Source: an uncultured Chloroflexia bacterium (GTDB lineage Bacteria > Chloroflexota > Limnocylindria > Limnocylindrales > CSP1-4). From it: a stretch of DNA of 64,000 nt. The DNA lies in the NCBI GenBank assembly GCA_963748625.1, contig CAVVJT010000004.1, positions 736,001-800,000 on the forward strand, given 5' to 3'. The notes beneath the pieces are model-generated. The model was not told where the DNA came from and searched no databases. It saw nothing but the letters and a program-made list of their open reading frames with translations. How positions within the stretch are numbered: position 1 is the stretch's first letter; the number at the start of each line of letters is the position of its first letter. The position numbers and the translations under genes are program-made. Shown here piece by piece: positions 2,567 to 36,815 of this stretch.

Positions 2567-3085
2567 CTAGCCGGCAGCCGCAGGCCCGTGCGAGACGTGG
2601 GTCACGCGCTCCAGTTCGAGGGTGATGGCCTCCTGGAATGCGTGCATGTTGAGCCGGACCGATCGCGAGAGCGGGCGCCCGTACCCGAACCGGCGTCCGC
2701 CGATCCCCACGAAGGTGCCGTCGGGCAGGCCGCCCGCCCGGCGCGCCTTTGCATCCTCCAGGACGGCGTCGATGGGCAGCTCATGCGAAGAGCGTGGTGT
2801 CGGGGTGGTCGTATCGCCGGTCACGTCACACAGCTTCATGGTCACGACGTGTCCGGGAGCGATGCCCATGGCCGCGTCCACGAGGATGCAGATCTCGCCC
2901 GAGGGCACATCGAGGAGGTCCTCCGCCCGGAGGTGCCCGCACCGCCGGACCTCGAGCCGCTCCAGCATGGCCGCGGGCAGGGACGGCAGGAGCGTCGCCA
3001 CCGCGCTGAGCGCGGCGCCGTCATCACCCCTGTCCGCGTTGCCACAGACCAGGAGTCGCACCGAGGGCGGTGCCAGCTGGTTCAT
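2567..3085 (-). CDS. Hydrogenase maturation protease (HycI/HybD family)
   Basis: GNADRGDDG, VDAA and SSHEL motifs. Start set at ATG 3085, which has GGAG upstream. Confidence 0.85.
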   Translation of the reverse strand: MNQLAPPSVRLLVCGNADRGDDGAALSAVATLLPSLPAAMLERLEVRRCGHLRAEDLLDVPSGEICILVDAAMGIAPGHVVTMKLCDVTGDTTTPTPRSSHELPIDAVLEDAKARRAGGLPDGTFVGIGGRRFGYGRPLSRSVRLNMHAFQEAITLELERVTHVSHGPAAAG

Positions 3086-3510
3086 ACGTTCGCCTCCACA
3101 ACGGATGTCGGGACGCACGACACCAGCGGATCCCCCGAGGGGGGCTGCATACCCATGCTCGCCCGTGGCCGACGGGCCAGCGAGTGCCGTCCGTCGCCGG
3201 GGCGGCGTGCCGGTCGGCCGGGGGTGCCTGCCGGTCGGCCCGCGTGGCAGGGGCCGGCAGCCCCTCAGCGTGAGCCCAACAGTCCGTCAACGGGGTCCCG
3301 GAGTGCCGCAGCGGGGCCGGGCAGCATCTCAACGGGGGCCAGGAAGCCCCCGCCGATGACCAGGGCCCTGCCGGAGGCGCTCGAGGCGCGCGCGGAGGTC
3401 CGCCTCGCCAACCGGTCCCTCGGGACGCTCCGCACGGATGACGCCTGGTCGCTGGCCGATCGTCCGAAAGGGGTGGGCGATACGCCCGCCCATGGACGCC
3501 GGGACCGACA

Positions 3511-3924
3511 TCACGGTCCGCAGGGCTCGCCTCCGGCCGGGTTCGGGGCGGGGAACGACGGTGCCTGGTCCGATGCCCAGATCGCGAGGCGGCCACAGAC
3601 CATGTCGACCAGGCCGAGGGCGCCGGTGCACGAGGTCGCATCACCCTGGGTGGCGCAGGTCGGCGCAGCATCGAGCTGCATCGAGACGAGCACCCGGCCC
3701 GCCGGGGAGACCGCCTCCACCCGCCATGGGAACGCGACGCCACGCAGGGGGACCGCGCCGCTCTCTCCGGCTGGCGCCATGCCTGCGGGCGTGCCGTTCA
3801 CGCGGATGACCACGTCAAGTGTCGAGCCGTTCTCGTAGACGATGTCCGCGCCCTCCTGCACGCCGGGCAGGATCGTGCAGGCAGCCACGAGGGCCGCCGC
3901 GACGACCAGCGCCAGGACACGCAT
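3511..3924 (-). CDS. Hypothetical lipoprotein
   Basis: Signal peptide with lipobox VAAC. RBS GGAGGT precedes ATG 3924. Confidence 0.7.
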   Translation of the reverse strand: MRVLALVVAAALVAACTILPGVQEGADIVYENGSTLDVVIRVNGTPAGMAPAGESGAVPLRGVAFPWRVEAVSPAGRVLVSMQLDAAPTCATQGDATSCTGALGLVDMVCGRLAIWASDQAPSFPAPNPAGGEPCGP

Positions 3925-4013
3925 CGCCCGACCTCCACCCCAAGTCGAACCCGGGAATCCGAGGACCGGCCGCAGCATGCGCCGGGCCGGCCCTCGACAG
4001 CAAGCGGTGAAGG

Positions 4014-5351
4014 TCAGTGAGGGCCGGCCTTCGCCTCCTGCGCGCGCTTGATGATCGGGGCGAGCGCCTCCGCCAGGTTGCCCGAGACCGGATCGAGCTC
4101 GTACCGGACGCGCACGATCGGCTTCGACACCTTGAGCACGCGCGTCAGGTCGATGGGCGTGGCAGCCAGGATCACATCGGCCGGGACGGCGTCGAGAGCC
4201 GCTTCCAGCTCGTGGACCTGCTTCTCGCCATAGCCCATGGCCGGAAGCAGGGCTTGGAGCTTCGGGTACTTCGCCAGCGTCGCCGCGAGCTCGCCCGATG
4301 CATAGGTCCGCGGATCCACGACCTCGGCGCCGAAGCGCTGCGCGGCCACGATGCCCGCCCCGTACGTCATGCCCCCATGGGTGAGCGTCGGGCCGTCCTC
4401 CACCACGACGACGCGCTTGCCGGCGATATCGCCGCCCTCGAGCACCAGGGACGAGCGGGCCTCGACGATCATGGCGCCCGGGTTGACCTCGGCGATGGAT
4501 GCGCGGACCTCGGCCAGCGCCTCCGCCGTGGCCGAGTCCACCTTGTTGATGCAGACGACGTCCGCCGAGCGCAGGTTCGCCTCACCCGGGTGATACCGGA
4601 GCTCGTGGCCGGGCCGCAACGGATCGACCACCACGATGGCAAGGTCGGGCGTGTAGAACGGCAGGTCGTTGTTGCCGCCGTCCCAGATCACCACGTCGGC
4701 CTCGGCCTCGGCGGCGCGCAGGATGTCCTCGTAGTCAACGCCCGCGAAGACCAGGCGGCCCGCGTCGAGGTGCGGCTCGTACTCCTCGCGCTCCTCGATC
4801 GTGGTCTGGTGACGGTCCAGGTCGGCGTACGTCTCGTAACGCTGGCAGCGCTGCGCAACGAGATCGCCATACGGCATCGGGTGGCGGACGACCGCGACCG
4901 TCAGGCCCGCGGCCTCGAGGGCGGAGGCGACGTACCGGCTTGTCTGGCTCTTGCCGCAGCCGGTGCGCACGGCGCACACGGACACCACCGGGCGGGTGCT
5001 CGCGAGCATCGTGGCTGCCGGACCGAGGAGCTTGAAGTCAGCGCCTGCCGCCATGGCGCGGCTGGCTGCGTGCATGACCTGCTCGTGGCTCACGTCGCTG
5101 TACGCGAAGACGACGGTGTCCACGGCCAGGTCGCGGACCAGCTGCTCCAGCTCCGACTCCGGCCGGATGGGGATCCCCTCGGGGTAGCGCTCGCCCGCGA
5201 GCTCGGGCGGATAGCGCCGGTCGGCGATGCCGGGGATCTGCGTCGCCGTGAAGGCGACGACCTCGACGGTGGGGTCCGCGCGATACACCACGTTGAAGTC
5301 GTGGAAATCGCGGCCGGCGGCACCCATGATCAGCACGCGTTCGGTGCCCAT
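4014..5351 (-). CDS. COG2403 P-loop protein (cyclic 2,3-diphosphoglycerate synthetase-like / arginine synthetase ArcE-like)
   Basis: MGAAGRDFHDFN N-terminus, RTGCGKS P-loop, RHPMPYG, TIEEREEYE, WDGGNND, EDGPTLTHGGM. Confidence 0.85.
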   Translation of the reverse strand: MGTERVLIMGAAGRDFHDFNVVYRADPTVEVVAFTATQIPGIADRRYPPELAGERYPEGIPIRPESELEQLVRDLAVDTVVFAYSDVSHEQVMHAASRAMAAGADFKLLGPAATMLASTRPVVSVCAVRTGCGKSQTSRYVASALEAAGLTVAVVRHPMPYGDLVAQRCQRYETYADLDRHQTTIEEREEYEPHLDAGRLVFAGVDYEDILRAAEAEADVVIWDGGNNDLPFYTPDLAIVVVDPLRPGHELRYHPGEANLRSADVVCINKVDSATAEALAEVRASIAEVNPGAMIVEARSSLVLEGGDIAGKRVVVVEDGPTLTHGGMTYGAGIVAAQRFGAEVVDPRTYASGELAATLAKYPKLQALLPAMGYGEKQVHELEAALDAVPADVILAATPIDLTRVLKVSKPIVRVRYELDPVSGNLAEALAPIIKRAQEAKAGPH

Positions 5352-28632: not shown

Positions 28633-29112
28633 TCAGTCCTGCGGCGCGCAGGCGGCGCACCGGCCGGCAATCGAGAGGTGCGAGAGCTCCACCCTGAACC
28701 CACGTGAGGCCTGGAGCGACGCGACGAGCGCCGCGGCCTCCTCAGCCCCGATCTCCCACGTGCCGCGGCACCCGGCGCAGTACAGGTGCCCGTGATCGGC
28801 GGCGGGCATGACGTGGAACTCCTCCCGGCCGTCCATGCCGTGGGCGTGGCGGAGGACGCCGATCTCCTCGAGCACGTCGAGGGTGCGGTACACGGTGGAC
28901 GGGATCGTGGTCGGGTCCACCTCGCGGCAGCGCTCCACGAGCTCCGCTCCCGTGACGTGCCCATCGGTCCGGGCCAGGACGTCGATCAGCACGCGGCGCT
29001 GGGGCGTCCAGCGCAGGCCGCGCGCGCGAAGCTCCGCGGGCACGTCGGACCACGAGGCGGGGGCGGCAGGCTGGGGCGATCCGGCAGGTCCGGGAGATCC
29101 GGTGGAGCTCAT
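28633..29112 (-). CDS. Fur-family metalloregulator
   Basis: RWTPQRR, STVYRTL, HGHLYCAGC and C-terminal CAAC. Confidence 0.93.
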   Translation of the reverse strand: MSSTGSPGPAGSPQPAAPASWSDVPAELRARGLRWTPQRRVLIDVLARTDGHVTGAELVERCREVDPTTIPSTVYRTLDVLEEIGVLRHAHGMDGREEFHVMPAADHGHLYCAGCRGTWEIGAEEAAALVASLQASRGFRVELSHLSIAGRCAACAPQD

Positions 29113-29140
29113 CGCGCGAAGGATAGGGTGAGCCAGCATA

Positions 29141-29182
29141 CTATTGCAACTAATTGCAATAGCAACCCTTTGCGACTACGAT
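29141..29182. promoter_or_regulatory. Palindromic operator overlapping divergent promoters of the Fur gene and ECF operon
   Basis: CTATTGCAA-CTAA-TTGCAATAG (9-4-9). The right arm TTGCAA lies 17 bp before the -10 TACGAT (29177-29182). Confidence 0.75.
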
Positions 29183-29226
29183 GTCCACACAGCGCATCGC
29201 CACCTGCAACCGGGGAACCCGTCCTC

Positions 29227-29961
29227 ATGGACCTCTTCACCATCGCCAGCGCCCCCCTCACAGGCATCGCCGATCCGTCGCTCCATGCAGCGGACCGGTT
29301 CCTCTCCGTCCCCGTCGCACTGCTCTTCTGGGCCATCACGATCGTGGTGGTCGGCATCTCGGTGCGCAAGGTCGGCCGGACCATGGATGAGCGGGCCATC
29401 CCCCTGATGGGCGTCATGGGCGCCTTCATCTTCGCCGCCCAGATGATCAACTTTCCCGTCGCCGGCGGCACCTCCGGGCACCTCCTGGGCGGCGTGCTCG
29501 CGGCTGTGCTGCTCGGGCCTTGGGCGGGCACGCTGGTGATGGCCTGCGTGATCGCGGTGCAGGGCCTCGTGTTCTCCGACGGTGGCCTGCTCGTGATGGG
29601 CGCCAACATCTTCAACATGGGCATCGTGGGCACCGTGGGCGGCTTCGCGATCTACCGGGCCCTGTGCGGCGTCCTCGGAGGCGAGGATCGCGGGCGCATT
29701 CCGGCATCGGCGGTCGCCGCTTGGCTGTCGGTGATGATCGCGGCCGCCTTCATCGCCGCAGAGCTCGCGGTCTCCGGCACAAGCCCGGCAGAGGTCGTGT
29801 TCCCGGCCATGCTCCTGGTCCACACGGCCATCGGCTTGGGCGAGGCCCTGATCACCGCCGCAACCCTCGCCTTCATCGGCAGGGTGCGCCCGGACCTGTT
29901 CAACCTGCGCCCCGATCGTGCCGGGCGTCCGTCCGGCACGACCGCCCCGGTGCCGGCATGA
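29227..29961 (+). CDS. cbiM: ECF transporter substrate component CbiM/NikM-like
   Basis: AFIFAAQMINFP, GTSGHLLG, QGLVFSDGG, GANIFNMG, HTAIGLGEALIT. Confidence 0.9.
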   Translation: MDLFTIASAPLTGIADPSLHAADRFLSVPVALLFWAITIVVVGISVRKVGRTMDERAIPLMGVMGAFIFAAQMINFPVAGGTSGHLLGGVLAAVLLGPWAGTLVMACVIAVQGLVFSDGGLLVMGANIFNMGIVGTVGGFAIYRALCGVLGGEDRGRIPASAVAAWLSVMIAAAFIAAELAVSGTSPAEVVFPAMLLVHTAIGLGEALITAATLAFIGRVRPDLFNLRPDRAGRPSGTTAPVPA

Positions 29962-30413
29962 GCGGGAACGAGGGCCAGGTGGCGACGGCGGCCGCGGAGC
30001 CCGCGGTGGACCAGCCCGATGCCGGCACGGCGGTGGCCGCGGCCACCGACACGACCACGCCGGCGCCCGCGACCACCGACACGATCACGCCAACGCCCAC
30101 TCCAACGACCACAGCAACGAAGCGCGCCGGCGGCCGCTGGTGGTGGGTCGGCGGGATCGCGATCGCGGTGCTCGTGGTCGTCCTCCTCGCGCCGCTCGCA
30201 TCGTCAGACCCTGACGGCCTCGAGCGTGTCGCAGAAGACCAGGGCTTCATCGGCCAGGCGACCAACCTGATCGGCGGCCTGCTGGGCGATTACGCGCTCC
30301 CGGGCGTCGGCAACGAGGCCGTCTCGACGGTCCTGTCGGGCCTGCTGGGCATCGCGATCGTGGTGGGGCTGCTGTTCCTCCTGGGGCGCCTCATGGCGCG
30401 CCGCCGCGCCTAG
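29958..30413 (+). CDS. PDGLE-domain membrane protein (NikN/CbiN-like)
   Basis: ASSDPDGLERVA motif with two TM helices and a Thr/Pro-rich N-terminus. Confidence 0.9.
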   Translation: MSGNEGQVATAAAEPAVDQPDAGTAVAAATDTTTPAPATTDTITPTPTPTTTATKRAGGRWWWVGGIAIAVLVVVLLAPLASSDPDGLERVAEDQGFIGQATNLIGGLLGDYALPGVGNEAVSTVLSGLLGIAIVVGLLFLLGRLMARRRA

Positions 30414-30425
30414 GAGCGCCGGGCC

Positions 30426-31220
30426 CTGGAGCTTGACCGGTACGTCGAAGGCACGAGTCCCTTCCATCGGGCGGATGCGCGCGTCAAGTTCATCCTGACC
30501 CTGGTGGCCATCCTGGCCATCTCCCTGCTGCCGGATGCCTCCTGGGTCGCCCTGGCGATGGCCTGGCTCACCCTCGTCGCGTGCTCGGCCACGGCCGGCC
30601 TGGGCCCGTTCCGGCTCACCCGCGCCGGCGTCGTGGCGCTGCCATTCGCGATCGCCGCCCTGCCCCTTGTGTTCACCGTGCAGCAGGACATCGTGGCCAC
30701 CATCGACCTCGGCCCCCTGACACTGACCATCTCCGCGGAGGGTTTCCGTCGGTTCCTCTCGATCCTGATCGGCAGCTGGCTCTCGGTGCAAGTCGCGCTC
30801 CTGCTCGCCTTCACCACGCCGTTCCACGATCTCGTGGACGGCCTGCGGGAACTGCGCGTGCCGCGAATCCTGATCGCGATCATCTCGTTCATGTACCGGT
30901 ACCTCGCGGTGCTCTCCGACGAGGCCTCGCGCATGATGCGGGCCCGCGATGCGCGCTCCGCCATGCGCACGGGCTCCTCGGGTGGCACGCTCCGCTGGCG
31001 CGCCACCGTGGCCGGGCGCATGGTCGGCTCACTGTTCCTGCGCGCCTACGAGCGAAGCGAGCGCATCTACGCAGCGATGCAGGCGCGCGGCTTCGAGGGT
31101 GAGTTCCGCCACCTGCAGGCTCGCGCCCTCCGCCGCTCCGAGATCGCCTGGCTCTTCCTCCTCATCGCCCTCCTGGCCGCCTACGAGGTCATCGCGTTCA
31201 TGTGGCTTCCCCACCAGTGA
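30426..31220 (+). CDS. cbiQ: ECF transporter T component CbiQ/NikQ (probable CTG start)
   Basis: Conserved SPFHRADARVK lies upstream of the first GTG. FMYRYL, ARDAR and AMQARGF motifs. AGGAG is 9 nt before CTG 30426. Confidence 0.85.
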   Translation: MELDRYVEGTSPFHRADARVKFILTLVAILAISLLPDASWVALAMAWLTLVACSATAGLGPFRLTRAGVVALPFAIAALPLVFTVQQDIVATIDLGPLTLTISAEGFRRFLSILIGSWLSVQVALLLAFTTPFHDLVDGLRELRVPRILIAIISFMYRYLAVLSDEASRMMRARDARSAMRTGSSGGTLRWRATVAGRMVGSLFLRAYERSERIYAAMQARGFEGEFRHLQARALRRSEIAWLFLLIALLAAYEVIAFMWLPHQ

Positions 31221-32050
31221 GCACGCAGCTCGACCAGCCCCACGTCCACGAGCACGTCCACGACGAGCTTGGCGCTCACGCCCACCCGCACGCGCACGAC
31301 GAGCCCGCGGGTGCCGGGGGGAGCGCCGCCGACAACGCCCGCGGCACCGTCAGCCTGCGCCATGTCCACTACCGGTATCCGGACGGGTTCGAGGCGCTGC
31401 GGGGCGTTGACCTGCGGATCGAGGCGGGCGAGAAGGTCGCGCTGGTCGGGCCCAACGGCGCAGGCAAGAGCACCCTCATGCTCCAGCTCAACGGCACGCT
31501 CCGGCCGGAGTCGGGCGAGGTCCGGGTTGCCGGGGTGCTCGTCGAGAAGGCCTCGCTCAAGCGCGTGCGTGCGGAGGTGGGCCTGGTCTTTCAGGACCCG
31601 GACGACCAGCTCTTCAGCCCCACGGTCTTCGATGACGTGGCGTTCGGGCCGCTGCACATGGGCCTGTCCGGCGACGAGGTCCATCGCCGGGTGGAGGGCG
31701 CGCTGGCGGCCGTCGGGATGGCGGCCTTCGCACACCGGGTGCCCCACCGCATGTCGCTCGGGCAGCGCAAGCGCGTTGCCGTGGCCACCGTGCTCTCCAT
31801 GGACCCGTCGATTCTCGTGTTCGACGAGCCGTCGGCCGGCTTGGATCCGCGGGGCCGCCGCGAGTTGATCGGGCTGCTCCGGTCGCTCGACCAGACCATG
31901 CTGGTGTCGACGCATGACATGCGGCTGGTCGCTGAGGTCTTCCCGCGGACCGTGGTCGTCGATGACGGCCTCGTGGTGGCCGACGGGCCCACGGATGCCC
32001 TCCTGGCCGACACGGCCATGCTGGAGGCGCACGGGCTCGAGGCTCCCTGA
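31217..32050 (+). CDS. cbiO: ECF transporter ATPase CbiO/NikO with His-rich N-terminus
   Basis: GPNGAGKS, FQDPDDQLF, SLGQ, DEPS, STHD. GTGA overlap with cbiQ. Confidence 0.93.
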   Translation: MSTQLDQPHVHEHVHDELGAHAHPHAHDEPAGAGGSAADNARGTVSLRHVHYRYPDGFEALRGVDLRIEAGEKVALVGPNGAGKSTLMLQLNGTLRPESGEVRVAGVLVEKASLKRVRAEVGLVFQDPDDQLFSPTVFDDVAFGPLHMGLSGDEVHRRVEGALAAVGMAAFAHRVPHRMSLGQRKRVAVATVLSMDPSILVFDEPSAGLDPRGRRELIGLLRSLDQTMLVSTHDMRLVAEVFPRTVVVDDGLVVADGPTDALLADTAMLEAHGLEAP

Positions 32051-32101
32051 CCCCGGGACCGCCCGGGCTCATCGTGGGATCAGCCCGCGATCAGCCTGAG
32101 A

Positions 32102-32608
32102 TCAGCCCACGCGCGTGATCGACGGGAGGTCGAGCGCGTCGAGGTGGTCGGCACGGCGGAGGATGCGTGCGAACAGCGACGGCACGTACCAGCGCAGGAA
32201 GTAGAGCCGGCAGCCCACGCAGATCCCCGTGGCGGCGAGCAGCGTCTGCAGCGCGATGACGGCGCCGGTGAAGACCCAGCCGAGCGGCGCGGCGCCAAGC
32301 ACGAACGCGAGCGAGGCTAGGGCGAGGGCGATGCCGCCGAGCGCCTGGGCGAAGCGCGGCGGGTACTCGTGCTCAGGCTCCGCAGGCGGGCCGAGCCTGA
32401 GAGCGCTGCGCACGGCGGGCCAGGCGCGTCCCGGCAGGAAGAACCGGGTGCCGAACGCGGCGGAGACGAGCAGGTTCAGGGCGACCAGCGCGACGAGCCA
32501 CGGCAGGCCTAGGGCGAAGGCGAGGACGAGGGCCGCAGCCGAGACGCCGGCGCCGAAGCGCTGGCCACGGGGGTCGATGAGACGGGCGGGAGCAGGGGTG
32601 AGGGACAC
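32102..32608 (-). CDS. DUF4395 membrane protein
   Basis: IDPRGQRF, PPRFAQALG, GICVGC motifs. GGAG is 9 nt before GTG 32608. Confidence 0.85.
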   Translation of the reverse strand: MSLTPAPARLIDPRGQRFGAGVSAAALVLAFALGLPWLVALVALNLLVSAAFGTRFFLPGRAWPAVRSALRLGPPAEPEHEYPPRFAQALGGIALALASLAFVLGAAPLGWVFTGAVIALQTLLAATGICVGCRLYFLRWYVPSLFARILRRADHLDALDLPSITRVG

Positions 32609-32694
32609 AGGAACGGGCTCCGGGTCGGGCGGGACACAGCGGGGCGCGGGTGCGCACCCGGGACGACGGGGAGAGATGCGAGGCCCGGAGCGGG

Positions 32695-32805
32695 TCAGGC
32701 GGTGGGCGATCCTGCAGCGGACCACGCACGCTCGACCGACGCCGACGCTCGCCGACGACAGGAGCAAGAGTGGTCCATACAGCCCATGGGGGCGATCGCA
32801 ATCAC
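32695..32805 (-). CDS. Putative leaderless Cys/Met-rich leader peptide (36 aa, MIAIAPMGCMDHSCSCRRRASASVERAWSAAGSPTA)
   Basis: -10 TACGGT lies 6 nt before GTG 32805. Five sulfur-amino-acid codons fall within codons 7-16. Directly upstream of the DUF4395 gene. Confidence 0.6.
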   Translation of the reverse strand: MIAIAPMGCMDHSCSCRRRASASVERAWSAAGSPTA

Positions 32806-32867
32806 GGGAGAACCGTACACGACGCTGGTTGCATCGTCAACGACCTAGCTCCGCCGGAGGGCGCCCG

Positions 32868-35800
32868 CTACCGGAGCGTCACCATCCCGTCGATGTCCAC
32901 GCGCGGCCGACCGGCGGTCCCCACGACCACCAGCCTGACCTTGCGCGTCGCCGAGGTACCCCACGTCCTGGACCATACGATCACGCGATGCCGGACCGTC
33001 GAGCTGCGGGTGTCGACCGTGGTCACGTAGGCGCCGTTCACATACACCTTGACCTTGCCCCGGCCGAGGCCGGTGGTGACCACCAGGCCGAGCGTCCTGC
33101 CGGTGACGGTCCACGTCGAGGATGCGCCGGCGCGCTTGCTCCACCGCGCTGAACCGCCCGAGTACGCAGCCCTGGATGCTGTCCTCCAGCCACTTGACCA
33201 GCGGATGCTGGATCGTGTCTGCTGCAACACCCGAGCGGTCAGCGTCGGCCCTTTGGCCCAGGCGCCCGCGACGCCATCGCCATCCACAGCACGCACGGCG
33301 TACCGCACCGTTCCCGACGAAGGCATCGTCACGATGTGCGAGGCGGCGGCGAGACCGGTGGCGACCGTCACGAACGCGCTGCTGTTGACGCTCCGGGCGA
33401 GCTCCCATGAGGCGATCCCCGGCCCATCGGCATCGGTGCCGCTCCAGGTGAGCCTGGCGGGGATCCCGGAGCCTGCGAGCCCCGCGCCGGTCCGCAGGGT
33501 AGCGACGGGCGCTTTGGCCACAGGCGGGACGGGGGGCGCCGCCCAGGGATCAACGGACAGGACGTTGCCGGCCACGTGATAGCCCCAGTTCGGGATGACC
33601 CCACCGACGACCAGCCGGTGCGGGTCAAGAGGTGCAGCCGCGGCGGCCATTGGGGTGGCGACCATCGCGAGGTCCACGCCGGGATCGACGGGTGGAGCGA
33701 GCGGCAGCGCAAGTGCGAAGACGCCCGTGCTGCCGTCCTGGCCCCAGGCCCAGTAATCGTTGCTGCGCAGCGGAGCCGTGGCCGCCGCGTTGACGTCGAG
33801 CGAGCCTCGGTCGAGGATCACCACGCCGCCACGGCCAATCGCCATCGCGATCCCGGCGTCGGCGGTGGCGATGCCGTAGACGTGGTCCCCCCAGTAGTTG
33901 CTGAACCACGAGGTCGTCGAGGGGTCCGTGGGCCGCAGCAGTGCGCCGGTGTCGGCCGCGAAGACCACGAGGGACGAGCTGCACGTGATGTAGCCGCCGC
34001 CGCCCTCCCGGGCCGTGATCCAGCAGTACTCCCCGCCGGCAAGCACGCGACCCTCGTCTGCAACGATCGCGTGGACCGCGAAGTCGCGGAGCCCGGAGCC
34101 CGGAGCCACCGGGATCACACCCAGCAGGTCCGGGTCCCACGCGTCGAGCGCGCCTGCCGCGTTGAGCCGGGCGAGGCCCCTGCGGGTCTTCCCGTCCACG
34201 GTGCCGAAGATTCCACCGATGTACAGCAGCCCCGCGGAGTCGAAGGCCAGGGCGGTCACCTGTGATGCCCGAGGCTCCCCGGACTACGCACCCCTGGTAG
34301 AACGGGAACTCGGGGATGGACGGGGCATCGAGGCACCCGAGGACCGGAGCGGGCAATGTCGCCCGCGCCCGACGACGGGCTGGCGTAGTGGCGAAGCGGT
34401 GCCGCATCGGTGCCCCCAGTGCCCCGCCAGTCGCCGCCGGCCCAGAACTCGCCGGAGACGGGATCGACCGCGATCGTCCTGACCGCGCCCGGCGGCGTCG
34501 CCTGCGGCGACCAGTCCAGCAGGTGGCCGTCCACGGGATCGAACGCCGCCAGGGATCGCACGTTCCAGTCCGCCCCGGGTGCTCTCGGGAAGAACACCTC
34601 GCCGCCGGCGAGGAGCCAGCCCTGGTCGAGCGCGAGGGCCATGACCTCGGGCTGCGGGTCTGCGACCACCGGGGAGACGAAGGCAGGGTCGGGGCTCATG
34701 CTCGTGGTCATCGCGACAATCCCGGGCGACGTGATCCCGCGCACGAACTGGAAGTCGCCGCCGAGCACCACGCCGGCGCTCGACACGGCCAGGGTCACCA
34801 GGGCCATGGACGCGTTCCCCGGGTCTGGATTCCAGGCGGCCACCTGGTCCCCAGTCCCAAGATCTATCGCCCGCGTGGTGCCGAGCAGGAGTGATCGGCC
34901 GCCCGGGGCGGTGTAGGGCACCGTTGGCAGGCCCTCCGAACCCTCGAGCGCGATCACGTCCGCCAGCTCGCCCGTGAGTCGCCCGTTCATGAGCTCGTAG
35001 CGGCAGAGCCGGCTGCCCCACGTGGCGCTGCCGTCTGACGAGTAGGACCACTTGGACATCCAGGCGTGGATCGCTCCATCGAGCTCGAAGTACGGAGAGC
35101 CAGGGGCTGACCCGACGCACGTCGAGCCCGCACCGGCGAAGGAGCCGTCGGCGAGGTGCTCCTCCCCGGCATCGTTCCAGCGCTGCACGATCGTCCCCGT
35201 CGCGGCGTCGAACGCGACGAGCCGTGACGCGCCGAACGTGGTGGCGTCCACGGGGTCCAGTGGGAAGGTGCCGGCCAGCAGCACCTTGCCCTCAAGGTAG
35301 GCAGCGCCGGTCGCCCAGCCGGTCCAGTTTCCTCCGCCGTAGACCTCGGATCCCGCCGGCATCTCCGACTGCAGCGGCACCACCCATCGCCGGGTGCCTG
35401 GCCCCAGGTCATACGCAACAAGGAAGCTGCGGCTGTCCCGAGTTTCGATGGAGGTCGCCCCCACCCACGCGCGGTACACCACGAACAGCCGGTTGGCGGC
35501 CGGGTCGTATGCGGCGGCGAACACCGTTGCATAGCAGTACGGCAGCGCTGCGCAGTCGGCAACGACGGGCAACGGGCTCGTGACGCCGGGGAGTGACGTG
35601 GTGCAGGCACCCGTCGTCCGGTTGATCACGAAGAGGCCGGTCGTGTTGCCCGCGCTGGTCATGAAGCGGCCGATCAGGTGCTGCGGCGTGATCGTGTACC
35701 CCGCATCACCGCTGAATGTGCTCATCCGGGCGAAGACCGAGCAGGCGTCAGGGTCGCCGGTGATCTTCCAGCCGGCGTCCACCACCCAGCGGCTACCAGC

Positions 35801-36815
35801 AGGATCGAGGTGCATCCGCGTGACCGGCGAGGCGGGCACGGGGACGCCGTCGATCGCGGTCAGCTCCCCGATGATGAAGAAGCCCGGGTCCCCCGGCCGG
35901 TCGTCGGCCACCACCTGGCGCACGGTGCCCAGCACCTCGGGGCTCCCCGCCTGCAGCGAGCCATCCCCCGCATCGGGCGTCGAGACAACCGCGACCGGTC
36001 CGGTCCGCAGGCCGACCTTCGTGAAGCTGCCGCCAAGATACGTGCGGCCGGTGGTGGCATCGGTCACGATCGCGCGCACCGCACCGTTGACGGCGTACAG
36101 GCCCAGATCCACACCCCCGGGCGGCCGGATCGACTCGATGTGCACGGTGACGCCACTGGCCGCCGCGTGGTAGGTGTCCCCCGCCTGCGATGCCGTGAGG
36201 GTGCAGGTCCCCGGGGTGTCGAGGGTGACGGAGGTGGTGCCGAGGGTGCAGATGGCCGGCGTCATGACGGCCCAGGCGATCGGCAGCCCTGCGTCCGAGG
36301 AGGCGACGAGCGCCACGACGGAGCCCACATACGCCGAGGGCGCCATCTTCACAGCGATGGACTGGCTGCCGACCACCGCGACGGACGCGGTCACATCCTC
36401 GGCCGCCACCCACGTCGCGTCGCCTGGCTGCGAGGCCGTGACCGAGCAGAGTCCCGCGACCTCGAGGACGAGGAGCGGCTCGCTGATGGAGCAGACGTCC
36501 GGCGTGCTCACGGCGAACGTCACCGGGAGCCCGGAGTCTGCCGTTGCCACGAGCTGGATCGAGTCGCCCACGCCACCACTGGACCGCCAGGTTGAACGTG
36601 ATCACCTGTGGAGTGCCGGAGGCCGGCGCGGACGTCGGCTCAGGTGTGGGCTCGGTGGTGAGGACGACCCCAGGCGTTGGAGTTGGCCCCAATACGGGAG
36701 TCGGGTCAGGCGCAGAGGGTCCGGTCGCCCCCACCGGGGCTGGGGCCGCAGCACTGCTCACCACGACGAGCGCGGCGAGCAGTGTGGTGGTGATGCGGGC
36801 AGCCAGGCGAAGCAT
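32868..36815 (-). pseudogene. Large secreted beta-propeller / Ig-like protein interrupted by three +1 frameshifts (or sequencing errors)
   Basis: Signal peptide from ATG 36815. Coding continues across shifts near 36583, 34365 and 34280 through ORF pieces 36842/36571/34407/34259. SGLPVTF repeats and GGxF propeller motifs. Confidence 0.75.

Follow-up and report, generated by a model that had tools for sequence, protein, structure and literature searches.

The window, the whole 64,000-nucleotide (nt) stretch of DNA analysed here, comes from contig CAVVJT010000004.1 of an uncultured Chloroflexia bacterium and carries, on its minus strand, a gene for a DUF4395 protein. Upstream of this gene lies a short open reading frame (sORF) with several Cys codons, together with RNA segments that can pair with one another and with the gene's Shine-Dalgarno (SD) sequence, and an initial annotation had proposed that this leader is an attenuator responding to sulfur-containing amino acids. 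Comparison with related genomes suggests that the leader is probably a Cys-tRNA-sensing, ribosome-mediated translational attenuator of DUF4395. Its parts are given below, in 5' to 3' order of the minus strand.

32868 to 32608, minus strand: intergenic gap of 260 nt, from the stop of a DUF5122-like gene (32868) to GTG 32608 of the DUF4395 gene.
32840-32835, minus strand: -35 box TTGACG, 17 nt 5' of the -10 box; an addition to the parts in the initial annotation.
32817-32812, minus strand: -10 box TACGGT (TANNNT type), followed by a 6-nt spacer and the sORF GTG at 32805.
32805-32695, minus strand: leader sORF of 36 codons and a TGA stop; transcription and translation presumably both start at GTG 32805.
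32766-32758, minus strand: core codons TGC-TCC-TGT (Cys14-Ser15-Cys16), the candidate sensor; an extra Cys codon, TGT, lies at 32781-32779.
32766-32729, minus strand: predicted hairpin P1 (segments 1:2), with the Cys and Arg codons as 5' strand, loop GAGC and a 3' strand that extends to GTCGAGCG.
32752-32741, minus strand: 5' strand of predicted helix P2, GCGAGCGTCGGC, with GGCGAG invariant; overlaps the loop and 3' strand of P1.
32691-32684, minus strand: anti-SD GCTCCGGG, beginning 3 nt past the sORF stop.
32689-32678, minus strand: 3' strand of P2, TCCGGGCCTCGC, with CTCGC near-invariant at 32682-32678; 6-nt overlap with the anti-SD.
32624-32617, minus strand: SD region CCCGGAGC, the 3' strand of predicted helix S2, with GGAG at 32621-32618, 9 nt before GTG 32608.
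32608-32102, minus strand: DUF4395 gene, the predicted target of regulation, 168 amino acids (aa), with a PF14340 match and a CxxC motif.

The sORF encodes MIAIAPMGCMDHSCSCRRRASASVERAWSAAGSPTA and ends with the TGA at 32697-32695. Its Cys codons, none of which are adjacent, are TGT at 32781-32779, TGC at 32766-32764 and TGT at 32760-32758 (Cys9, Cys14 and Cys16), and Met codons are located at 32787-32785 and 32778-32776. The initial annotation, which had described this reading frame behind its -10 box, was accurate on the minus strand in all coordinates and sequence details (-10 box, GTG 32805, 36-codon frame and TGA), including the positions of the three Cys and two Met codons and the exact complementarity of GCTCCGGG to CCCGGAGC, with GGAG inside the SD segment. 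TGT, which it had called rare, is indeed so in the 31 likely genes of the window (13,675 codons), with a TGC:TGT ratio of 91:10 and Cys accounting for 0.74% of codons, compared with 3 of 36 in the sORF; considering this low usage of Cys and TGT, three Cys in 36 codons, two of them TGT, are unusual. Folding of 32805-32590 bore the annotation out in part: the helix between anti-SD and SD is present in the unconstrained minimum free energy (MFE) structure, whereas the leader as a whole is no more stable than shuffled sequences (z -1.12), which speaks against the attenuator, and stability was therefore not used as evidence. Thus the window alone is indecisive, and the case beyond chance rests on conservation.

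The DUF4395 protein has 3,640 homologues at E ≤ 0.001. An alignment of 36 of them served to search one genome per species, and of the 338 relatives found the best 80 were used. All are uncultured metagenome-assembled genomes, titled Chloroflexota, Chloroflexia, Limnocylindrales or Anaerolineaceae, with DUF4395 proteins 61-88% identical to that of the window, and together with the window they make up 81 loci. These relatives place the window in a Limnocylindria-like Chloroflexota genome, not in an actinobacterium. A short upstream ORF with a Cys cluster, with a median length of 30 codons, precedes DUF4395 in 78 of the 81 loci; the sORF pattern caught 77 of these and L034 was added by its M-C-C-R-R-R, while L028, L048 and L059 are without a Cys sORF. 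Their common core reads Cys-x-Cys-[Arg/Pro]-Arg-Arg-x-Pro. It is preceded by 13 residues that belong to several unrelated subgroup types (e.g. V-I-A-I-A-L-T-G-C-M-G-Q-Q, M-T-D-Q-Q-L-R-R-L-Q-G-E-P and M-T-T-R-D-R-R-L-P-S-G-A-C), with frame and length retained. A strict nucleotide motif for the leader has one copy in the window and none elsewhere in the 80 relative loci. On the evidence of these alignments, the leader element is strongly conserved and not a product of chance, and the earlier suggestion of a leaderless-type Cys sORF before DUF4395 outside mycobacteria appears well founded.

Such conservation could also arise if the sORF encoded a functional small Cys-rich peptide, e.g. a sulfur- or metal-binding partner of DUF4395, with the helices described below being ordinary GC-rich structure. 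The retention of C-x-C-R-R-R-(V/A)-P across subgroups agrees with this idea, and Canestrari et al., in the text of their preprint, leave open a small-protein role for conserved non-Cys residues (10.1101/834739). We nevertheless consider it quite unlikely, given that the N-terminal residues differ so completely among subgroups, that the leader peptide matches no Pfam family and that it is the nucleotides, down to the wobble bases, which are conserved most strongly. Moreover, GGCGAG, itself invariant, pairs outside the ORF with CUCGC, which is likewise invariant and covaries in part, and a covarying helix hides the SD of the next gene.

Support for translation of the sORF, as expected of an attenuator, comes from the position of its promoter. 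A TANNNT box followed after 6-7 nt by ATG, GTG or TTG was found in the frame of the Cys core in 64 of 76 distinct loci, in frame 2 in a single locus and in frame 1 in none, and no in-frame stop separates the -10-linked start from the Cys codons. As background, a TANNNT hexamer stands before 108 of the 15,034 start-like triplets in these loci (0.7%). In 57 of the 64 loci the first core Cys follows exactly 39 nt (13 codons) after the start, and TTGACN lies 16-18 nt 5' of the -10 box in 31 of the 75 loci having a -10-linked start. The TANNNT signal was used by Zheng et al. to predict leaderless genes, and such genes, according to their report, were found in 4 of 12 Chloroflexi genomes (PMC3160421). 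The distance between -10 box and start would correspond to the geometry of a leaderless mRNA, with the 5' end placed by promoter geometry. A consensus promoter scan returned no promoters under a rule that wants more TATAAT matches than a TANNNT box offers, and because this rule is too strict for such a box, the promoter was judged by geometry instead. Gap runs inside the ORF alignment comprise 64 of 3 nt, 4 of 6 nt and one of 5 nt (L045), where 59 of the 64 three-nt runs represent one shared gap, resulting from a 3-nt insertion in L031, L032 and L060; beyond the stop, alignment gaps are of every length.

These observations also bear on the possibility that the leader is an untranslated structured RNA, such as a riboswitch or a protein-binding leader, and that the open frame is incidental in the DNA of a genome with 71% GC. 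The core and the CUCGC box are nearly invariant in nucleotides, as such an RNA would require, and by our own estimate from base composition a 30-codon frame would be open by chance about half the time. In addition, the codon-position entropy of the N-terminal half of the sORF is coding-like only in subgroup C of the four subgroups and non-coding-like in the other three, which counts against the attenuator as well, so entropy was not used as support. Despite these points, an untranslated RNA seems very improbable to us, as it would not account for a start at the 5' end defined by the -10 box, for the 64 : 1 : 0 preference for the Cys frame with its fixed 39 nt, for indels within the ORF that keep the frame, or for two UGY codons that persist while the codon between them changes. 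A search of both strands of 32000-33200 against Rfam, with its described upstream ORF (uORF) and leader motifs, returned no match up to E 10.

Codons were tabulated for 68 distinct sORFs, which had been picked by a pattern fixing two Cys and one Arg, a selection that weighs against taking the constancy of those residues at face value. The first core Cys is TGC in 56 and TGT in 12, and the second is TGT in all 68. The middle codon varies, encoding Ser in 49 sORFs, Ile in 8, Cys in 4, Ala in 3, Thr in 2 and Met and Leu in one each. Extra Cys codons are found at position -5 (26 of 68) and position -1 (16 of 68), with runs of CCC or CCCC in one subgroup. That the middle codon changes and both flanks stay UGY suggests that selection acts on the Cys codons themselves.

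Sensing of Met in addition to Cys, which the initial annotation had put forward, was considered separately. Met is present four residues before the core in 22 of the 68 distinct sORFs, all belonging to the subgroup of the window, and both core Cys are found in every matched sORF; since Met is conserved solely in that subgroup, Met sensing was rejected.

At 32758-32749, and at the same place in relatives, codons that are rare in the window genes cluster: the second Cys is TGT (68/68), which makes up 10 of 101 Cys codons in those genes, and the third Arg is CGA (60/68), which makes up 67 of 1,188 Arg codons. The rare TGT and CGA of the core could reflect slow decoding as well as pairing constraints.

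To count base pairs, we used an alignment (A2) of 62 sequences, corresponding to the 69 matched loci minus four with long leaders, two without a -10-linked start and one on a truncated contig. The values for the four candidate helices, with window coordinates, are as follows.

32766-32729, minus strand: P1; 87.8% of cells paired, 40-47% in slid controls, 6 cells changed on both sides.
32752-32741 with 32689-32678, minus strand: P2; 84.7% of cells paired, 20-47% in slid controls, 17 cells changed on both sides (4 pairs).
32691-32684 with 32624-32617, minus strand: S2, anti-SD with SD; 75.5% of cells paired, 26-57% in slid controls, 28 cells changed on both sides.
i41-45 with i185-189 (32765-32761 with 32621-32617), minus strand: S1, Cys tract with SD; 80.0% of cells paired, 26-65% in slid controls, 0 cells changed on both sides.

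For P2, none of 500 shuffles matched the observed values on three measures, and the observed values of S2 were likewise matched by 0 of 500. Variant pairs of S2 include CUCCGGG:CCCGGAG, UCUCCGGG:CCCGGAGA, CUCCAGC:GCUGGAG, GACCUCCGG:CCGGAGGUC and UUCUCCU:AGGAGAA. The longest helix of the anti-SD has at least 7 contiguous pairs covering GGAG in 46 of 66 leaders, compared with 29% of mononucleotide shuffles; this enrichment is real but modest in C-rich RNA, and the positional consistency and the variant pairs weigh more. The aligned upstream regions of the relatives thus point to a DUF4395 SD that is hidden by a helix with compensatory changes. The further suggestion of the initial annotation, that the anti-SD region has a competitor within the leader ORF, is supported by the comparison in principle, whereas the pairing it had named, GAGCGTCGGC with GCCTGACCCGCTC, is not the conserved one: it can form in the window with bulges, and in one locus inspected by eye, L001, the sequence loses complementarity. 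The conserved competitor is instead GGCGAG..UCGG (32752-32741) with CCGG..CTCGC (32689-32678), i.e. P2. Direct pairing of the Cys tract with the SD through S1 (core GCUCC with GGAGC), the mycobacterial design, is seen in 80% of cells, a value equalled by shuffles, and is impossible where the middle codon is AUC; it appears feasible and shows no covariation, and we neither adopt nor exclude it.

RNAalifold consensus structures contain P1 and S2 in the subgroup of the window and P2 in two other subgroups, and P1 is also present in the MFE structure of the window. In A2, columns 54-65 belong to both P1 and P2, and columns 127-132 to both P2 and S2. With these shared bases, the leader follows the 1:2 / 2:3 / 3:4 logic of a trp attenuator, with the SD in segment 4.

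Loci with longer leaders (L030, L037, L046, L063, L034 and L044, at about 2690-3000), where 156-188 nt separate the sORF stop from the gene, form a subgroup that was excluded from the helix counts. Their sORFs have 2-4 consecutive Cys (e.g. ...ACCCCRRRPRSREDVVRKD), the spacing from the -10 box to the start is 10 nt, and a distinct conserved hairpin lies downstream. In L037, L046 and L063, those tested of this subgroup, DUF4395 is followed by a MoeZ-like ThiF+rhodanese gene.

The attenuator could operate in the following way. From the TTGACG-17-TACGGT promoter, the transcript would begin at or next to GTG 32805 with a leaderless 36-codon ORF, and codons 14 and 16 (UGC and UGU), lying within the 5' strand of P1, would act as the sensor. 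When Cys-tRNA is ample, the ribosome would pass these codons and terminate, P1 (1:2) would refold and the anti-SD GCUCCGGG would remain on the SD CCCGGAGC (3:4, helix S2), leaving DUF4395 untranslated. When Cys-tRNA is scarce, the ribosome would pause on the Cys codons and occupy segment 1, and the freed segment 2 (GGCGAG..UCGG) would pair with segment 3 (CCGG..CUCGC) to form P2, which would remove part of the anti-SD. The SD would then open, allowing synthesis of DUF4395 and, in relatives, also of the products of cysE, cysK or moeZ-like genes behind it.

Three ribosome models were tried to follow this switch, with the SD-opening costs averaged over 66 leaders. In model 1, a ribosome-sized block from -15 to +13 or to +10 relative to the A site was placed within the full-length RNA; opening GGAG, which costs 6.4 kcal/mol in the mean, becomes cheaper by 1.2-1.4 kcal/mol, most strongly at the first core Cys. 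In model 2, all RNA 5' of the edge of the lead ribosome was removed, with the edge assumed at A site +11. Here the mean opening cost is 6.3 kcal/mol upstream, reaches a minimum of 4.7 kcal/mol when the first core Cys codon or the one after it occupies the A site, and is 7.7 kcal/mol a further thirteen codons on. Subgroups A (4.2), B/D (6.2) and C (4.9) have their minimum at that same codon, and in the window the cost drops from 7.6 to 4.7-5.1 kcal/mol; this sharper minimum depends on the assumed ribosome edge. In model 3, the constrained MFE structure of the window with a ribosome on Cys14 has P2 formed. GGCGAG starts 13 nt past the first base of the first core Cys codon, just beyond the assumed edge, a distance that would fit pausing on these codons and depends on the same assumption. 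Equilibrium folding can thus be taken as modest support for the switch.

Several observations weigh against the attenuator as outlined. In model 1 the effect of the ribosome is small (about 1-1.5 kcal/mol) and broad, extending over codons -3 to +5, the opening cost is still about 5 kcal/mol and the probability that GGAG is unpaired stays near 0; the SD acquires new partners in the 5' part of the sORF and stays mostly paired. Covariation in P1 is weak, as its 6 cells are matched by 9-30 of 500 shuffles. Wobble positions within the core hardly vary (UGU 68/68, CGG 60/68, CGA 60/68), which indicates that part of the peptide motif is an RNA constraint. The overlap of P2 and S2 reaches 6 nt only in the subgroup of the window and is about 2 nt in subgroup C, and in subgroups B/D the anti-SD is situated at the stop codon, outside P2. 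The relay may therefore differ among subgroups, being clearest in the window's own.

The arrangement in B/D also bears on the opposite logic, translational coupling, in which a ribosome at the sORF stop would sit on or beside the anti-SD and unmask the SD; expression of DUF4395 would in that case accompany plentiful cysteine and drop with pausing at the Cys codons. We regard this as unlikely overall. Its attraction lies in the position of the anti-SD, which in the window begins 3 nt past the stop and in B/D overlaps the stop codon (UGACCUCCGG), and in the modelled costs, as a ribosome at the stop cuts the opening cost by 0.8 kcal/mol over all leaders, and one at codons 15-17 in B/D gives a cost of 5.5-6.3 kcal/mol, compared with 6.2 kcal/mol at the Cys codons. 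As the cost is equally low or lower near the stop in B/D, coupling stays alive for these subgroups. On the other hand, the distance from stop to anti-SD is 3-30 nt in the window's subgroup, so that a terminating ribosome would often miss the anti-SD, and coupling requires neither the alternative helices P1 and P2 nor Cys codons at a set distance from P2.

A different output could also be envisaged, in which the main effect is transcriptional polarity, through Rho-dependent termination in the leader or in untranslated DUF4395, and not SD access alone. Rho-dependent termination was proposed by Seliverstov et al. for actinobacterial cys leaders lacking terminators (PMC1262725), downstream effects are ascribed to polarity in the preprint of Canestrari et al. 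(10.1101/834739), and the window leader is C-rich. We give polarity as the main output very little credence: no terminator-like sites were found in a search for intrinsic terminators in 32000-33200, the conserved and covarying target of the switch is the SD, and polarity would follow from SD closure instead of replacing it.

The gene under the predicted control of this attenuator matches PF14340 with E 5.5e-28 and 98.3 bits (cut-off 24.5) over profile positions 1-127 of 130, and its CxxC motif, which the initial annotation had pointed out, is invariant in 36 of 36 aligned homologues. The AlphaFold2 model is helical, with a mean predicted local distance difference test (pLDDT) score of 74.6, and has no PDB match at E ≤ 0.001; no NCBIfam model matches, an Atlas search returns only DUF4395 clusters, and a full-text literature search gives only two passing mentions of the family. 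DUF4395 is a helical membrane protein of no known function, a point against the attenuator. In the window the gene is monocistronic, as a convergent cbiO-type ABC ATPase gene ends at 32050. Among the 38 co-directional ORFs surveyed downstream of DUF4395 in relatives, the following were found.

CysE-like hexapeptide transferase: 8/38; best match serine O-acetyltransferase TIGR01172 with 154-163 bits, below the cut-off of 210.65.
Cysteine synthase A (CysK): 2/38; 388.7 bits, cut-off 350.95.
MoeZ-like ThiF+rhodanese protein: 3/38; 466 bits, below the cut-off of 647.
EamA: 3/38.
MBL-fold: 2/38; one also with rhodanese.
Unrelated families: 6/38.
No Pfam family: 14/38.

CysE-like, CysK or MoeZ-like genes thus account for 13 of the 38, suggesting that the leader heads cysteine-type operons in several subgroups. 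EamA-type exporters, present after DUF4395 in the 3 of 38 tested loci, would suit coupling and expression in plentiful cysteine, whereas the identifiable downstream genes are mostly biosynthetic, as expected if the attenuator responds to scarcity. A point against this response is that no recognised cys gene stands behind DUF4395 in the window's own subgroup.

In two of the loci without a Cys sORF, L028 and L048 (about 3001-4900), MBL-fold genes begin 4-8 nt after DUF4395. The MBL-fold gene of L048 is fused to rhodanese domains and resembles a persulfide dioxygenase/sulfurtransferase, which suggests a second, differently regulated sulfur context for DUF4395.

The closest known systems are the mycobacterial polycysteine sORFs. 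In Ms5788A, a C-terminal run of eight Cys codons is described as pairing with the SD region of Ms5788 (10.1101/834739), and ribosome occupancy of the Cys tract is described as relieving translational repression (10.1101/834739; earlier proposal in Shell et al. 2015, PMC4633059). The family, named the 'Cys ribulon', is defined in the preprint by at least two consecutive Cys codons in the sORF, and the preprint text names only cysA2, a putative thiosulfate sulfurtransferase gene, downstream, with the identity of Ms5788 as a DUF4395 protein unconfirmed there (10.1101/834739). The leader described here resembles these sORFs in being an unannotated short ORF at the 5' end of an mRNA that promoter geometry predicts to be leaderless, with Cys codons as the candidate sensor, cysteine or sulfur target operons, no intrinsic terminator and an SD of the next gene that is hidden by pairing and, in the model, opened by a paused ribosome. 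It differs in phylum, Chloroflexota instead of Actinomycetota, in having a non-adjacent C-x-C at fixed codons 14/16 in the middle of the ORF instead of a C-terminal run of 2-8 consecutive Cys, and in its covarying SD partner, which is a separate anti-SD after the stop, engaged through the P1/P2 relay, instead of the Cys tract itself. Consecutive Cys codons are absent from the window sORF and present among the 68 sORFs as 16 with Cys at position -1 and 4 with Cys as middle codon; a position upstream of a cysteine or sulfur operon is seen in relatives (13/38), while in the window only DUF4395 follows. Since the window lacks consecutive Cys and its SD partner is separate, the leader was not filed as a member of the mycobacterial family; by analogy, it would work like the mycobacterial attenuator, through a trp-style relay.

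The classical trp, his, leu and thr attenuators of enterobacteria combine a short leader ORF, which holds the regulatory codons, with four segments whose helices 1:2, 2:3 and 3:4 exclude one another. The window leader shares the exclusive helices and the placement of the regulatory codons in segment 1. Unlike in the trp type, its helix 3:4 sequesters the SD instead of forming a terminator with a U run, its ORF is leaderless by geometry instead of SD-led, and its stop lies after segment 2 instead of between segments 1 and 2. A further parallel is uORFC-8-2 upstream of cysS in Rhodobacterales, a uORF described as having two conserved Cys codons at about codon 14-15 in the first stem and proposed as a Cys-tRNA sensor (Brewer et al. 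2021, PMC8632094), near the same codon number as in the window; unlike the window leader, it has tandem Cys, an intrinsic terminator and an alphaproteobacterial cysS target, and the account given there does not describe it as leaderless. Seliverstov et al. in 2005 predicted leaders with Cys runs before cys/cbs operons in Mycobacterium, Propionibacterium acnes and Bifidobacterium longum (PMC1262725). These likewise have Cys-codon leader peptides before cysteine genes and lack obvious terminators, whereas they are actinobacterial, carry their Cys runs near the stop and, as reported there, have no conserved helices found. Our literature searches for Cys leader elements in Chloroflexi found none.

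In the literature found, experimental proof of cysteine-sensing leader peptides is limited to mycobacteria (10.1101/834739), and prior predictions cover a few Actinobacteria and the cysS genes of Rhodobacterales (PMC1262725, PMC8632094). If the attenuator proposed here is real, the Cys-leader mechanism would reach a third, deeply separate and largely uncultured phylum. It would also represent a distinct architecture, in which alternative helices of the trp type are joined to a leaderless mRNA and act on translation. DUF4395 gains a first functional handle, as a Limnocylindria gene under a putative Cys-type leader and often before cysE/cysK/moeZ-like genes. The 78 natural variants with their compensatory changes are a ready mutational series for the minimum of regulatory codons and the tuning of their distance to the competing helix. 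More tentatively, and with rather less than even confidence, a Cys-sensing leaderless sORF plus DUF4395 may be a module common to, or repeatedly evolved in, Chloroflexota and Actinomycetota. In that case DUF4395, an uncharacterised CxxC membrane protein, would be a core, yet unrecognised component of cysteine/sulfur assimilation, the Limnocylindria version would be a distinct relay-type attenuator in which two non-adjacent Cys codons (14 and 16) suffice to shift P1 to P2 and unlock the SD, and control of a regulon by ribosome pausing (the 'ribulon') would extend past mycobacteria to an uncultured soil phylum.

Further observations concern individual loci and the surroundings of the gene. In L054 (about 2900-2990), what appear by eye to be three tandem copies of a unit of about 20 nt, located between central hairpin and SD, stretch the distance from stop to gene to 141 nt. 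L078 (about 2700-2730) has some 30 consecutive T immediately 5' of the sORF promoter region, which may be an assembly artefact. On one side of the DUF4395 gene, the window contains at 28636-32050 a Fur-family regulator gene (28636-29139, minus strand) divergent from a cobalt/nickel transporter cluster of the energy-coupling factor (ECF) type, which is convergent with the DUF4395 gene and is made up of CbiM, CbiQ, a protein with a PDGLE domain and an ABC ATPase. On the other side, at 32868-36571 on the minus strand, two large ORFs, 463 and 771 aa long, have 4 nt in common (34256-34259) and show either a weak match to the DUF5122 beta-propeller (23.2 bits, cut-off 27) or no Pfam family.

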